A DNA stretch of 64,000 bases, taken from the NCBI GenBank assembly GCA_964291655.2, contig OZ219802.1, positions 1,568,001-1,632,000 of the forward strand, read 5' to 3'. This DNA comes from Chloroflexota bacterium. Its GTDB lineage: Bacteria; Chloroflexota; UBA11872; VXOZ01. This document shows positions 12,749-43,574 of this stretch, piece after piece. Position 1 is the first letter of the stretch, and each line of letters opens with the position of its first letter. The position numbers were made by a program, and so were the translations under genes. The notes beneath the pieces were generated by a model. That model was not told the DNA's origin. It made no database searches and saw only the letters and a program-made list of their open reading frames with translations.

Positions 12749-13126
12749 TCGGAGAGAGGGCCGGGGTGAGGGGTCTTACCTGCTTTGCAAACCGTAAAAC
12801 TTGCAAGGTCAAGCATATTACAACCAGTCCGGTCAAGAAGCTGCTCGTGCTCAGAGCAATTTCACCCTCACCCCCGTATCGTGTCGATACGCTGTATCGC
12901 GTACGGGGCAGGCTCTAACCCTCTCCCTTGACGGAGACCCTTGCGAAACCTACGCGGAAGAGAGAGCGTTCCCTCTCCCTCGACGGGAGAGGGCTAGGGT
13001 GAGGGTGAATTTCTTGAAATCTCAAAGTACACACACCGATTCTGCACTGAAACATCTTGAAACTGCACGGCGTAAAGGGCCGTTGTAACAAAAAGACCCC
13101 CTCACCCCAACCCTCTCCCCCAGGAG

Positions 13127-14391
13127 TGTACAGACCGGGGACATAGGTAACAGATGTTCGGGTAGATAGGTTACACATTTTGTGCTCTGAGGTCTATGGT
13201 TTTTACTCTTTGGATCGAGAAGTACACGTCCCAGACACCGTCCGTTCGGGTGGGTCGCAGGGCGACTTGCTTGTGCGTGAAGGCCCTGCCCACACGGAGC
13301 CGTCTGCCTTGGAAGGAGATGCGGCCGGAGACATCGACGCTGCGTACGCGGTCGTCGGGAGCGTAGGCGAGGGCAGGCAAGGTCTCTGGGAAAGGGCGAG
13401 GACTAGGCGTGTATCTGGTAATGGGAGTGTCGAGATCGAGGGCATGGTGTGGGCGTTCCAAGTTGTAGAAGTGGCGCCAGGTGTCAAAGGCGCGCTGGCA
13501 ATGGTCCAGGTCGGTAAAGGTGGTCCCTGCCAGCAGTTCGCTCTTGAGGGAGCGGTGGAAGCGTTCCAGCTTGCCGAGTGTCTGGGGATGGTAGGGTCGG
13601 CTGTGCAGGACGTTGATGCCCAGCTGCATGAGCCAGACGGTGAGGGGCGTGAAGGGCTGGGCACTGTCGTTACCCCAGGGAGAGCCGTTGTCCATGAGCA
13701 TGGCCTGGGGCAAGCCGTAGCGGCGAAAGACAGCGGTGAGGCGGTCTTGGACCGTCTCTCCCCGCTCGTTGGCACAGGCCTGTAACCCGAGGTTGAAGCG
13801 GGAGTGATCGTCTAGGAGGGTGAGAGGATGACAGCGGTTCTGCTGCATGACGAAATGTCCCTTGAAGTCCATCTGCCACAGCTCGTTGGGCTGGGGTCGT
13901 TCGAAGCGCACATGGGGCGTGTGCTTGGCGCTCTGGGCTGGATCGATGAGCCCATGGCGTTTGAGAATGGCATTGATGGTGCTCTTGGCCGGCACGTCGG
14001 TGACCCCCTGGTCCTGCAGCATCCGGCGCAGCACGTGTGCGCCTTTCTTCGGATGCGCCAGGCGCAAGGCGATGATGCGCTCCTCCAGCGCCGGGCGCGT
14101 GCGGTGCGGACACGTGTGCGGCCGCCGCGACCGGTCGTGCAAACCGTCTTCGCCAGCTTTCGCATACCGCTCCAGCGTCTTGTACGCCGTCTTGCGACTG
14201 ATCTCCAGACGGCGACACAGCTCGCTGATGTTGGCCCCTTCCATCAGTGCCAGTGCAATGAACTCCTTGCGTTCAGACACAACCGTACTCTCCTTCCAAG
14301 GCATGGCGCTCCTCCATCTGTAAGAATCTCCATGCCTTAAGGTGTAACCTATGTGCCCGAACATGTGTAACCCATGTACCCGGTCTATACA
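13127..14391 (-). mobile_element. IS481-family insertion sequence, copy 1 (1265 bp)
   Basis: TGT...ACA ends, ~50-bp imperfect terminal inverted repeats, 5-bp target duplication AGGAG (13122-13126, 14392-14396). Confidence 0.95.
13171..14304 (-). CDS. IS481-family DDE transposase
   Basis: MPWKE start, HTH, WQMDFKG, DDHSRF, DNG, HPQTLGKLERFH. Confidence 0.95.
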   Translation of the reverse strand: MPWKESTVVSERKEFIALALMEGANISELCRRLEISRKTAYKTLERYAKAGEDGLHDRSRRPHTCPHRTRPALEERIIALRLAHPKKGAHVLRRMLQDQGVTDVPAKSTINAILKRHGLIDPAQSAKHTPHVRFERPQPNELWQMDFKGHFVMQQNRCHPLTLLDDHSRFNLGLQACANERGETVQDRLTAVFRRYGLPQAMLMDNGSPWGNDSAQPFTPLTVWLMQLGINVLHSRPYHPQTLGKLERFHRSLKSELLAGTTFTDLDHCQRAFDTWRHFYNLERPHHALDLDTPITRYTPSPRPFPETLPALAYAPDDRVRSVDVSGRISFQGRRLRVGRAFTHKQVALRPTRTDGVWDVYFSIQRVKTIDLRAQNV

Positions 14392-14509
14392 AGGAGAGGG
14401 AGTGCCCCTGCTTGAAAGTGGGGTTATGCAAAGGTCTCCTCGAGGGAGAGGGGGTAGGACGTATTGCCATTGACCTTGTCAAGGGTTGCTCACTGATGAT
14501 ACTGCGGCT

Positions 14510-15370
14510 CTAGCGTCCCCAGTCGCGGGGATAGCGGAAGTCGCGCTCGATGGTGCGTTGGGAGAGCTTGGCGATGATGGGTGGACGCCGCTTGTATTGC
14601 ATGCTCTGCACCACGCGCGCCACCTCCTCCACAAACTCCCTGGCGAACCCCGCGGCAATCAATTCTTCAGGACGATAGCGCTCGTCCACCAGCAGGAAAA
14701 GCAGGTGGTCTACATCTTCGTACGCGAATCCTAGTTCGCTTTCGTCCGACTGACCCGGCCATAGGTCGGCGCTTGGTGGTTTTTCTATAATTGCTGCCGG
14801 AATCTTCAAATGGCGGGAGAGTTGCCGCACCTGGGTCTTATAGAGATCGCCAATCGGGTTCACGGCACTTGCCATGTCGCCGTGCAGGGTGCTGTAGCCC
14901 AAGAGCAGTTCCGTCTTGTTACTTGTACCCAGCGGCAGGCTGTTAAACTCAACGGAGTGGTCGTAGAGAACGATCATGCGCGCACGCGCCATCACGTTGC
15001 CGCGCCGCTTCACGTCCATGTCGCGAAACTCTGCGAAGTAGGGGTCCACCAGCGAGGTAATCTCGATGAGCTTTGAGGGTATGCCCAATGCGCCAACCAC
15101 CGCTTCAGCGTCGCTGCGGCTGTCGGGGTTCGATTCCCGATACGGCAGCAAGAGGGCCAGCACGTTTTCCGGGCCCAGGGCACCCGCCGCCAGGTAAGCT
15201 GAGAGCGCGGAGTCGATGCCGCCGGAGAGATTCAGCACCGCCCGGGTAAAGCCGAATTTATGCACCTCATTGCGAATGAAGCTGTGCAGGATCTGCTCGG
15301 TAAGCGGTAGATTGAGGTCCAACCCACTGCGCGCTTTGGCGACGAGGTCTGTCTTTGCCTCACTCGTCAT
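14510..15370 (-). CDS. nadE: NAD+ synthetase (synthetase subunit only)
   Basis: [44 protein letters not shown]. Confidence 0.95.
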
Positions 15371-41889: not shown

Positions 41890-42200
41890 GCCTCTCATGG
41901 AAAGACGTAGGGGCACGACATGTCGTGCCCCTCGAGCCCACAGCCAGGGCTGCCAGACTCCGCAACTTCCGCGGGAGCTTTCCTGTCTAAGATAAAGTTC
42001 AAGTCCAAGAGCGGGAGACAAGCCTCAATGTTGTCTCATTAGCCGCCGGGGTGAAGAACATGCGGTTCTCGGTGCCCTGCCCGGTAGCACAGGTTTCTAA
42101 CCTGCATCCGCATCCTCCTGCTGGGACGCATTCCTTGTGATTGCATGTCTCACTTCATTGCCGCAACGCTGCATTTTCCCCTCACCCCAGCCCTCTCCCC

Positions 42201-43465
42201 TGTACAGACCGGGGACATAGGTAACAGATGTTCGGGTAGATAGGTTACACATTTTGTGCTCTGAGGTCTATGGTTTTTACTCTTTGGATCGAGAAGTACA
42301 CGTCCCAGACACCGTCCGTTCGGGTGGGTCGCAGGGCGACTTGCTTGTGCGTGAAGGCCCTGCCCACACGGAGCCGTCTGCCTTGGAAGGAGATGCGGCC
42401 GGAGACATCGACGCTGCGTACGCGGTCGTCGGGAGCGTAGGCGAGGGCAGGCAAGGTCTCTGGGAAAGGGCGAGGACTAGGCGTGTATCTGGTAATGGGA
42501 GTGTCGAGATCGAGGGCATGGTGTGGGCGTTCCAAGTTGTAGAAGTGGCGCCAGGTGTCAAAGGCGCGCTGGCAATGGTCCAGGTCGGTGAAGCTGGTTC
42601 CTGCCAGCAGTTCGCTCTTGAGGGAGCGGTGGAAGCGTTCCAGCTTGCCGAGTGTCTGGGGATGGTAGGGTCGGCTGTGCAGGACGTTGATGCCCAGCTG
42701 CATGAGCCAGACGGTGAGGGGCGTGAAGGGCTGGGCACTGTCGTTACCCCAGGGAGAGCCGTTGTCCATGAGCATGGCCTGGGGCAAGCCGTAGCGGCGA
42801 AAGACAGCGGTGAGGCGGTCTTGGACCGTCTCTCCCCGCTCGTTGGCACAGGCCTGTAACCCGAGGTTGAAGCGGGAGTGATCGTCTAGGAGGGTGAGAG
42901 GATGACAGCGGTTCTGCTGCAGGGCGAAATGCCCCTTGAAGTCCATCTGCCACAGCTCGTTGGGCTGGGGTCGTTCGAAGCGCACGTGGGGCGTGTGCTT
43001 CGCGCTCTCTGTGGGATCAATGAGCCCATGGCGTGTGAGCACAGCGTGGATGGTGCTCTTGGCCGGCACGTCGGTGACCCCCTGGTCCTGCAGCATCCGG
43101 CGCAGCACGTGTGCGCCTTTCTTCGGATGCGCCAGGCGCAAGGCGATGATGCGCTCCTCCAGCGCCGGGCGCGTGCGGTGCGGACACGTGTGCGGCCGCC
43201 GCGACCGGTCGTGCAAACCGTCTTCGCCAGCTTCCGCATACCGCTCCAGCGTCTTGTACGCCGTCTTGCGACTGATCTCCAGACGGCGACACAGCTCGCT
43301 GATGTTGGCCCCTTCCATCAGTGCCAGTGCAATGAACTCCTTGCGTTCAGACACAACCGTACTCTCCTTCCAAGGCATGGCGCTCCTCCATCTGTAAGAA
43401 TCTCCATGCCTTAAGGTGTAACCTATGTGCCCGAACATGTGTAACCCATGTACCCGGTCTATACA
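42201..43465 (-). mobile_element. IS481-family insertion sequence, copy 2 (1265 bp)
   Basis: Same ends as copy 1; 6-bp target duplication CTCCCC (42195-42200, 43466-43471). Confidence 0.95.
42245..43378 (-). CDS. IS481-family DDE transposase
   Basis: Near-identical to 13171-14304. Confidence 0.95.
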   Translation of the reverse strand: MPWKESTVVSERKEFIALALMEGANISELCRRLEISRKTAYKTLERYAEAGEDGLHDRSRRPHTCPHRTRPALEERIIALRLAHPKKGAHVLRRMLQDQGVTDVPAKSTIHAVLTRHGLIDPTESAKHTPHVRFERPQPNELWQMDFKGHFALQQNRCHPLTLLDDHSRFNLGLQACANERGETVQDRLTAVFRRYGLPQAMLMDNGSPWGNDSAQPFTPLTVWLMQLGINVLHSRPYHPQTLGKLERFHRSLKSELLAGTSFTDLDHCQRAFDTWRHFYNLERPHHALDLDTPITRYTPSPRPFPETLPALAYAPDDRVRSVDVSGRISFQGRRLRVGRAFTHKQVALRPTRTDGVWDVYFSIQRVKTIDLRAQNV

Positions 43466-43574
43466 CTCCCCAGGGAGAGGGAGCAATACACGCCTTTGGA
43501 GGAGAGGAGATACGCGCTCTCTATGCGTGTAGGGAATGCCAAACGTCCCCCTTTTGATTTTGGTGCGACAACAT

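Follow-up and report, generated by a model that had tools for sequence, protein, structure and literature searches.

An IS481-family insertion sequence and its miniature derivatives in a Chloroflexota genome very probably target one family of REP-like palindromes

Insertion of transposons into repetitive extragenic palindromic (REP) sequences has been described for several insertion sequence (IS) families. Specifically, Tobes and Pareja (2006) report REP targeting in the IS3, IS110, IS4, IS256 and IS5 families, and IS481 is not mentioned in the part of that paper drawn on here (PMC1525189). In addition, in P. fluorescens SBW25 an element of the IS481 family, about 1.3 kb long, was described by Ngan et al. 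(2024). All five of its copies occupy one REP position, and the authors suggest that REPs are the targets of this element (PMC11708052, in part). Insertion of IS481-family elements into REPs is therefore already in print for SBW25, REP-type landing pads are already known, and no new kind of system is put forward here. The present analysis concerns a 1,265-bp IS481-family element, found twice in a 64-kb stretch of the genome of a Chloroflexota bacterium (contig OZ219802.1, positions 1,568,001 to 1,632,000; hereafter the window), the miniature inverted-repeat transposable elements (MITEs) related to it, and the palindromic repeat in which they are inserted. A previous reading of the window from its letters alone (the original prediction) had started from the premise that REP targeting is described for some IS3 and IS110 elements; with five families listed, and with the IS481-family element of SBW25, this premise is outdated.

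Other described elements provide further points of comparison, and the sources on them are again cited for the parts that deal with palindromic targets. IS1397 and ISKpn1 resemble the present element in being DDE (rve) elements, in their case of the sister IS3 family, which insert centrally into the REP, or palindromic unit (PU), sequences of bacterial interspersed mosaic elements (BIMEs); their specificity has been attributed to the transposase (PMC1525189). The IS110-family elements IS621, ISPpu9, ISPpu10 and ISPa11 show a 100% association with one position of a REP (PMC1525189). Finally, IS1272 and other elements of the IS1182 family choose inverted-repeat or stem-loop targets (PMC5678879), and a member of that same family is found in the repeat described below.

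The two copies of the element in the window are both 1,265 bp long, lie on the minus strand and are 98.4% identical to each other. Copy 1 occupies positions 13127-14391 and is bordered by the target-site duplication (TSD) AGGAG at 13122-13126 and 14392-14396, and copy 2, which has an open transposase frame, occupies positions 42201-43465 and is bordered by CTCCCC at 42195-42200 and 43466-43471. On both flanks of each copy stand the two halves of a palindromic repeat, which we call family A. This repeat consists of an 8-9-bp palindrome of the form CCCTCTCC(C)-loop-GG(G)AGAGGG, with the arms CCCTCTCC and GGAGAGGG or, in the 9-bp version, CCCTCTCCC and GGGAGAGGG, and of a CCCTCACCC tail situated 2-4 nt from one arm. 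At copy 1, the tail of the invaded unit, CCCTCACCCC, is read directly on the plus strand at 13099-13108; the left arm CCCTCTCC (13111-13118), the loop and the first AGGAG (13122-13126) follow at 13111-13126, and the second AGGAG (14392-14396) with the rest of the right arm (AGGG) is found beyond the element at 14392-14400, all on the plus strand. At copy 2, the tail CCCTCACCCC (42179-42188), the left arm CCCTCTCCC (42191-42199) and the first CTCCCC (42195-42200) occupy the plus strand at 42179-42200, and the second CTCCCC (43466-43471), a loop A and the right arm GGGAGAGGG (43473-43481) continue the unit at 43466-43481 on the same strand. Taking out the element together with one copy of the repeated bases gave a rebuilt site for each copy. 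The boundaries, the duplications and both empty-site sequences proposed in the original prediction were reproduced in this way.

The genome containing the window comprises 3.47 Mb on two contigs (C1 and C2; 59% G+C). A blastn census of the whole genome, in which the elements were set in a common orientation before their flanks were compared, returned 24 full-length copies, of which 11 show 100% identity, six 98.4-99.1%, two 92.4% and five 86.2-86.6%. It also returned 44 short elements of 287-289 bp, falling into three subtypes, which match positions 1-55 and 1212-1265 of the IS only and carry no transposase; these are MITEs derived from the 1,265-bp IS481-family element. Halves of the tail-plus-hairpin repeat flank each of the 24 full-length copies and each of the 44 MITEs. 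The type-1 association of Tobes and Pareja combines the presence of every copy in the repeat, as observed here (68/68), with one and the same position in the REP, for which the placements are given below. Family A hosts 67 of the 68 elements. The remaining one, the MITE at C2:1507574, lies in family B, an unrelated stem (CCCCGTA-tcgag-TACGGGG) that adjoins the same kind of tail and of which 52 intact copies are present. The strict pattern CCCTCTCC-N0-10-GGAGAGGG surrounds the insertion point in 60 of the 68 rebuilt sites, and the other eight comprise four sites with a mismatch in one arm, one belonging to an 86.5% variant at the hairpin foot (C2:685450), the family-B site and two sites with unlike flanks.

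Together, the intact and rebuilt family-A palindromes amount to about 5.4 kb. This represents 0.16% of the genome and 0.9% of its sequence outside open reading frames (ORFs), the latter being a crude estimate in which non-ORF DNA, 17% of the genome, is all that lies outside a greedy set of ORFs of at least 300 nt. The chance probability of 67 out of 68 insertions falling into family A is about 1e-135. The original prediction had allowed for the cases that most other copies might lie outside these palindromes, or that the enrichment might simply reflect how abundant these repeats are between genes; instead, 67 of 68 lie inside, in 0.9% of the non-ORF DNA. No pair among the 68 elements has both flanks in common, and therefore they represent separate insertion events and not segmental copies. 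Many insertions have one flank in common, 80-96% alike across 150-270 nt, since a larger mosaic repeat often contains the palindrome.

A natural empty allele is provided by G008, a sister species and the closest of the related genomes, with flanks 93-97% identical. No IS is present at its locus orthologous to copy 1. The allele reads GACCCCCTCACCCCAACCCTCTCCCCCAGGAGAGGGAGTGC and contains the rebuilt copy-1 site letter for letter, and at this locus (...CCCTCACCCCAACCCTCTCCCCCAGGAGAGGG...) the left-flank and right-flank alignments have the five TSD bases in common. A usable empty allele was obtained at this one of the five sites tried in G008: at the locus of copy 2 the whole repeat-bearing spacer is absent, at C2:557824 and C2:997549 the spacers are diverged or interrupted by contig breaks, and at C2:1873481 the right flank was not found in that genome. 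A joint of 13121 to 14392, present in three public runs, was also considered as an empty allele or excision product and was rejected, its short side being 21-23 letters long and its depth very high; it is a generic repeat from other loci. We hold with high confidence that the IS481-family element and its MITEs target REP-like family-A hairpins. The central claim of the original prediction, that this element targets one REP-like palindrome family, is thus borne out by the 68 of 68 association, by the natural empty allele and by the same habit in relatives, described below.

We then compared the exact insertion positions. The TSD measures 5 bp in 43 elements, 6 bp in 15 and 0-3 bp in 10, and 12 different TSD sequences occur; considering the MITEs alone, 37 of 44 have TSDs of 5-6 bp and all 44 lie within repeats. 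Every site was turned with its tail on the left. In 48 elements the first base of the duplication lies 16-18 nt from where the tail starts, a span of only 3 nt. The TSD of this tail-proximal class reads CTCCC, CTCCCC or TCCCC and combines the end of the tail-proximal arm with the first base of the loop. Five elements use the mirror position in the distal arm (AGGAG); copy 1 is one of them and belongs therefore to the minority position class (5/53). The distribution of 48 proximal against five distal insertions (binomial p 7e-10) indicates that the side of the dyad is not random. These figures refer to the 56 tail-bearing elements with a TSD of at least 3 bp, of which 48 fall in the 3-nt span, five at the mirror position and three elsewhere; the remaining 12 elements, with no clean TSD or no strict tail, are hence unplaced.

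The tail motif adjoins 64 of the 68 occupied sites. Among these 64 clear-tailed elements, the two orientations with respect to the tail are represented 34:30 (12:11 for the IS and 22:19 for the MITEs). Therefore, the common orientation of the two copies in the window, noted in the original prediction, is a coincidence of two copies and does not hold in general. The accompanying remark that the duplicated sequence and its length differ between copies holds for the whole set, in which TSDs are mostly of 5 or 6 bp.

Two irregular kinds of junction were observed. Four elements (C2:835518, 1435983, 1464678 and 2239312) have the same odd junction, in which CTCCCC is paired with TCCCAG across the element, the duplication thus being one C off; this could be due to an assembly homopolymer error, to slippage or to a carried-over donor base. 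In addition, of the IS at C2:1793963 and the MITE at C2:1520257, one is tailed on both flanks and the other on neither, and their flanking hexamers are mutually reverse complementary (CTCCCC and GGGGAG), as would result from an inversion between copies of opposite orientation.

The same habit was found in related genomes. Among 40 of these, the transposase is present in 12 of 16 from the same genus and in five of 24 others of the class. When the flanks were read by eye at 20 loci from 13 other genomes, repeat halves appeared on both sides at 18, one of them in the family-B stem. One of the 20 loci, whose right end was wrongly set, shows a family-B half on one side only, and the locus of G034, which belongs to another family, lies within a 12-bp palindrome of quite another kind. 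Scanning a single genome for each species added 80 further loci, and both ends could be set for 71 of them. A perfect palindrome spanning the TSD (stem of at least 7, loop of at most 9) was found at 32 of these 71 loci, compared with 307 of 15,200 random positions (2.0%) in the same flanks. In the closer lineages, represented by the first 49 loci with transposases 57-84% identical, 30 of the 49 insertions are in a perfect palindrome, and most of the others lie in imperfect repeats or have unlike flanks. The palindromes themselves vary by lineage: one lineage uses CCCTCTCCC-ttgac-GGGAGAGGG, with ACGGG as TSD, another a 15-bp stem with a 7-nt loop of which the central 5 nt are duplicated, and in a Thiotrichales genome the target is CCCTCCCCG-ctca-CGGGGAGGG.

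The closest named elements in a plasmid collection are ISEc19 and ISRm20, with about 50% amino-acid identity. ISRm20, from Sinorhizobium meliloti, was recovered in four records representing three distinct sites, one of them with an 82% relative, and all are at the tip of a repeated palindrome, ATCCCTGTG-CTYGT-CACAGGGAT, the TSD being exactly the 5-nt loop. Like the present element, ISRm20 is 1,265 bp long, has a similar end (TGT..AG.CCGGGGACATA), generates a 5-bp TSD and inserts at a palindrome tip. It differs in that its TSD coincides with the loop and is dyad-centred, and in that its palindrome is of another sequence and lacks a CCCTCACCC-type tail. No literature on the target of ISRm20 or on this Chloroflexota element was found in a search to which ISfinder and supplementary files were external. 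Tip-targeting is inherited: relatives in other Chloroflexota genomes, with transposases 60-84% identical, occupy the tips of palindromes belonging to their own hosts, as does ISRm20. The data are evidence that it extends through a subgroup of IS481 elements, from Chloroflexota to Alphaproteobacteria.

All together, it is very probable that the best explanation of these data is the insertion of the IS481-family IS and its MITEs almost only into one REP-like repeat family. As for the mechanism, by analogy with IS1397 and ISKpn1, the transposase itself may read the double-stranded, dyad-symmetric repeat together with its tail. It would carry out two strand transfers, staggered by 5-6 bp, to the tail side of the dyad, and the near-equivalent ends of the element would lead to a random orientation. 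With targets situated in repeat DNA, most insertions would be harmless, and this would have allowed about 68 copies to accumulate. We lean towards a recognition of sequence plus geometry that would be intrinsic to the transposase, rather than one relying on a host factor or on an extruded structure.

According to the alternative that survives best, a host protein or a host-maintained structure at the repeat recruits transposition complexes, and the transposase has no specificity of its own. We consider this unlikely. Other transposons are found in the same repeat. The genome contains 58 further tail-plus-left-arm sites without a nearby right arm, many of them interrupted by a 1.6-kb element that encodes an IS1182-family transposase (NF033551, 364 bits, cut-off 270). 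This element (about 1.65 kb) is present in 23 copies, for example at C1:64929-66561, none of them in the window. All 23 are flanked by CCCTCTCC on the left (CCTCTCC in one) and by GGAGAGGG on the right, and 22 of the 23 rebuilt sites fit the pattern. In 13 copies the TSD is a perfect 4-bp duplication of the exact 4-nt loop, and in 10 the two 4-mers are unlike. Several of these unlike 4-mers are reverse complements, with TGGG on one side and CCCA on the other, which suggests either that copies have been rearranged with each other or that joining at the hairpin was unusual. A second IS481 element, 1,287 bp long and with a 55% identical transposase, is present in four copies (C2:1707063-1708349, and near 1755244, 1906093 and 2408103), one of which lies directly next to an IS1182 copy within the same repeat unit. 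In all four, the insertion is at the foot of the tail-proximal arm, with CCCTC or CCCTCT as TSD.

A host factor would thus fit the fact that three different elements have the repeat in common (68 elements, 4/4 and 23/23), and the dependence on the tail could mark a protein-binding site. However, the three elements use three different positions on one repeat, each with its own exact place (the tail-side apex, the hairpin foot and the 4-nt loop, respectively), the same habit is seen in Alphaproteobacteria on a quite different palindrome, and for IS1397 and ISKpn1 the specificity is reported to reside in the transposase (cited in PMC1525189).

A recognition of shape only, in which the transposase reads the tip of any extruded hairpin or cruciform, as proposed for IS1272, appears more doubtful still. 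This alternative can be judged by comparing occupied and intact palindromes. Family A counts 67 occupied and 161 intact copies, compared with one and 52 for family B (Fisher p 2e-6). Within family A, the ratio of tailed to tail-less copies is 57:3 among occupied and 111:50 among intact ones (Fisher p 1.5e-5), and that of short to long loops is 50:3 and 111:50, respectively (Fisher p 9e-5). This preference for tailed, short-loop family-A copies argues against the recognition of any hairpin, since 52 family-B, 50 tail-less and 50 long-loop palindromes are strongly under-used. Therefore, the family, tail and loop preferences argue that sequence and spacing are read, the tail among them, and not shape alone. 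Moreover, the hairpins flanking a RAYT-like gene (see below) carry no insertions, and the 48:5 off-dyad bias towards the tail side is inexplicable by a symmetric shape.

Points in favour of shape are the 12 kinds of TSD, the stems that vary between lineages, the unrelated family-B stem used once here and at least three times in relatives, and the stability of the hairpin: as single-stranded DNA, the site folds into an 8-bp hairpin of -9 kcal/mol (z -2.8 against shuffles). The proposal in the original prediction that the element recognises the palindrome structure, or a protein bound to it, rather than a fixed sequence stands only in part. The variable TSDs agree with it, but in view of the strong preference for family A, for the tail and for a short loop the claim was too strong.

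Random or intergenic insertion with purging outside harmless repeats, or the sheer abundance of the repeat, has a negligible probability, as its only basis is the general fact that gene-disrupting insertions get purged, whereas 0.9% of the non-ORF DNA holds 67 of the 68 elements, 48 of 53 insertions fall within 3 nt, and the 11 full-length copies at 100% identity are too young for much purging. Equally negligible is the idea that the half-palindromes belong to the element, with true ends further out, and are carried along and not targeted: although every copy is flanked by them, and in SBW25 a supposed 4-bp TSD travels with the IS (PMC11708052, in part), there are 161 intact palindromes without an IS and a natural empty allele, the 5-6-bp duplications vary between copies, the element takes either orientation to the tail, and three unrelated elements interrupt the same repeat.

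Several observations weigh against the targeting of one repeat family through a specificity of the transposase. First, a clean TSD is missing in 10 of the 68 elements. Second, the IS1182 element (23/23) and the second IS481 element (4/4) use the same repeat, and a common host factor or structure would economically explain three elements on one repeat. Third, target palindromes vary by lineage, and one MITE and at least three relatives are inserted in the unrelated family-B stem; therefore, the sequence of the arms is not the whole signal. Fourth, in a lineage with 58% identical transposases (L087-L110, from two Dehalococcoidia genomes, with elements of about 1,286 bp and 5-bp TSDs) perfect palindromes are found at two of 22 insertions only, so that tip-targeting is not universal in this branch of IS481. 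In addition, the related genomes are kin and not independent trials. Finally, the words extragenic and harmless are not established for this repeat, as 107 of the 161 intact family-A copies lie outside greedy ORFs of at least 300 nt and 54 inside, according to a crude gene model.

The nature of the repeat itself also deserves comment. REPs in the strict sense are mobilised by REP-associated tyrosine transposases (RAYTs) and tagged with GTAG or CGTC (PMC2817692 and PMC3733652, in part). Family A resembles REPs as a short (20-40 bp) palindrome present in more than 100 copies: 161 are intact (3,398 nt), 111 of them tailed and 50 tail-less, and about 95 carry a transposon, which gives about 256 intact and interrupted copies genome-wide. 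No GTAG or CGTC tag is present in the aligned sites, where the conserved end reads CCCTCACCC, or GGGTGAGGG on the complementary strand, and no RAYT gene flanked by family A was found in the genome. Specifically, the sole Y1_Tnp (RAYT-like) match is a frame at C2:2523380-2524060 (226 aa, 30 bits; L001 1399-2079, minus strand), and it is flanked by a different hairpin, GCGGGCG-aga-CGCCCGC. The lack of a tag and of a family-A-flanked Y1 gene is the reason why we do not file the repeat as a RAYT-type REP; it is REP-like, that is short, palindromic and present in more than 100 copies.

In the window, an intact and unoccupied unit, included in the 161, lies on the minus strand at 12971-13005 and reads CCCTCTCCC-tcgac-GGGAGAGGG, followed by cta and by the GGGTGAGGG tail. 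It is opposite in orientation to the next unit, with which it forms an inverted pair. More generally, the repeat units at 12971-13126 and 14392-14460 are arranged in inverted pairs and are parts of a larger mosaic repeat, and the stretch AGTGCCCCTGCTTGAAAGTGGGGTTATGCA comes after many repeat units.

The assignment of the element to the IS481 family is based on its ends and on its transposase. The element begins and ends with TGTACAGACC...GGTCTATACA, and an alignment of its two ends gives 84.9% identity over 53 nt; in copy 1 these imperfect terminal inverted repeats, of about 53 bp each, are at 13127-13179 and 14339-14391. The longest frame of copy 1, on the minus strand at 13171-14364 (397 aa), is the sole long frame with family matches. 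In relatives of the transposase a stop is found at codon 9 of this long frame, and therefore the real start is likely to be the ATG at 14304, with GGAGGAG in front of it; this predicts a gene at 13171-14304 (minus strand) coding for 377 aa. Recoding had been suspected from the in-frame stops of the relatives; it was rejected, as the stops are at codon 9, upstream of the likely start, and are an artefact of an over-long frame choice.

The transposase scores 290.2 bits against the NCBIfam model NF033577 (IS481 family transposase), above the cut-off of 224, and 116 bits against the IS3 model, below the cut-off of 160; its Pfam matches are rve, rve_3, HTH_32 and LZ_Tnp_IS481. Elements of the IS481 family measure about 1-1.3 kb, have a single transposase frame without programmed frameshift, carry terminal inverted repeats and generate short direct target duplications in the range of 4-15 bp. 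The present element, with a single open frame of 377-397 aa within 1,265 bp, inverted ends and TSDs of 5 or 6 bp, fits this description. An Rfam search of 12800-14700 returned two chance microRNA matches only, far below threshold.

Compared with the described systems introduced above, the element shows several differences. IS1397 and ISKpn1 have two frames and a programmed frameshift, whereas a single frame and an off-centre, tail-side position are found here. The TSDs of IS1397 and ISKpn1, of 3-4 bp, are also shorter. The IS110-family occupants of REPs belong to another enzyme class, lack inverted repeats and insert in an oriented, sequence-guided manner, in contrast to the DDE enzyme, the TSDs and the random orientation of the present element. 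IS110 insertion is guided by a bridge-RNA mechanism. IS1272 has an unrelated transposase family and replaces the stem-loop without a TSD (PMC5678879), while the IS1182 element found here duplicates the 4-nt loop. The element of SBW25 is the nearest in kind, being of the same family, about 1.3 kb long and provided with long (49-bp) inverted repeats (PMC11708052). This likeness is drawn from the published description, and no MITEs are reported in the part of the description drawn on here (PMC11708052). It differs in residing in another phylum, in its REP, which there belongs to RAYT-associated REPINs, in a 4-bp TSD as opposed to 5-6 bp, and in the number of events, five as opposed to 68.

Looking beyond this genome, we tentatively suggest that the phylum-crossing, ISRm20-like subgroup of IS481 (about 1,265 bp) might be an old hairpin-tip DDE lineage that tracks the palindromes of its hosts. 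In the present Chloroflexota genus it would read an asymmetric CCCTCACCC tail and therefore insert off the dyad, in a repeat that is a landing pad for three transposons. The data set comprises 68 separate insertions of one element, to which two others add 27, in a repeat of about 256 copies, with measurable preferences for the tail, the loop length and the side of the dyad. It thereby offers ready-made natural target variants for studying how a DDE transposase selects a structured site. If the proposed reading is true, the element would be a natural system for how an enzyme resembling retroviral integrases is steered to a defined and harmless site. Insertion into this repeat would also explain why a small genome with almost a hundred transposon copies shows few visible signs of damaged genes.

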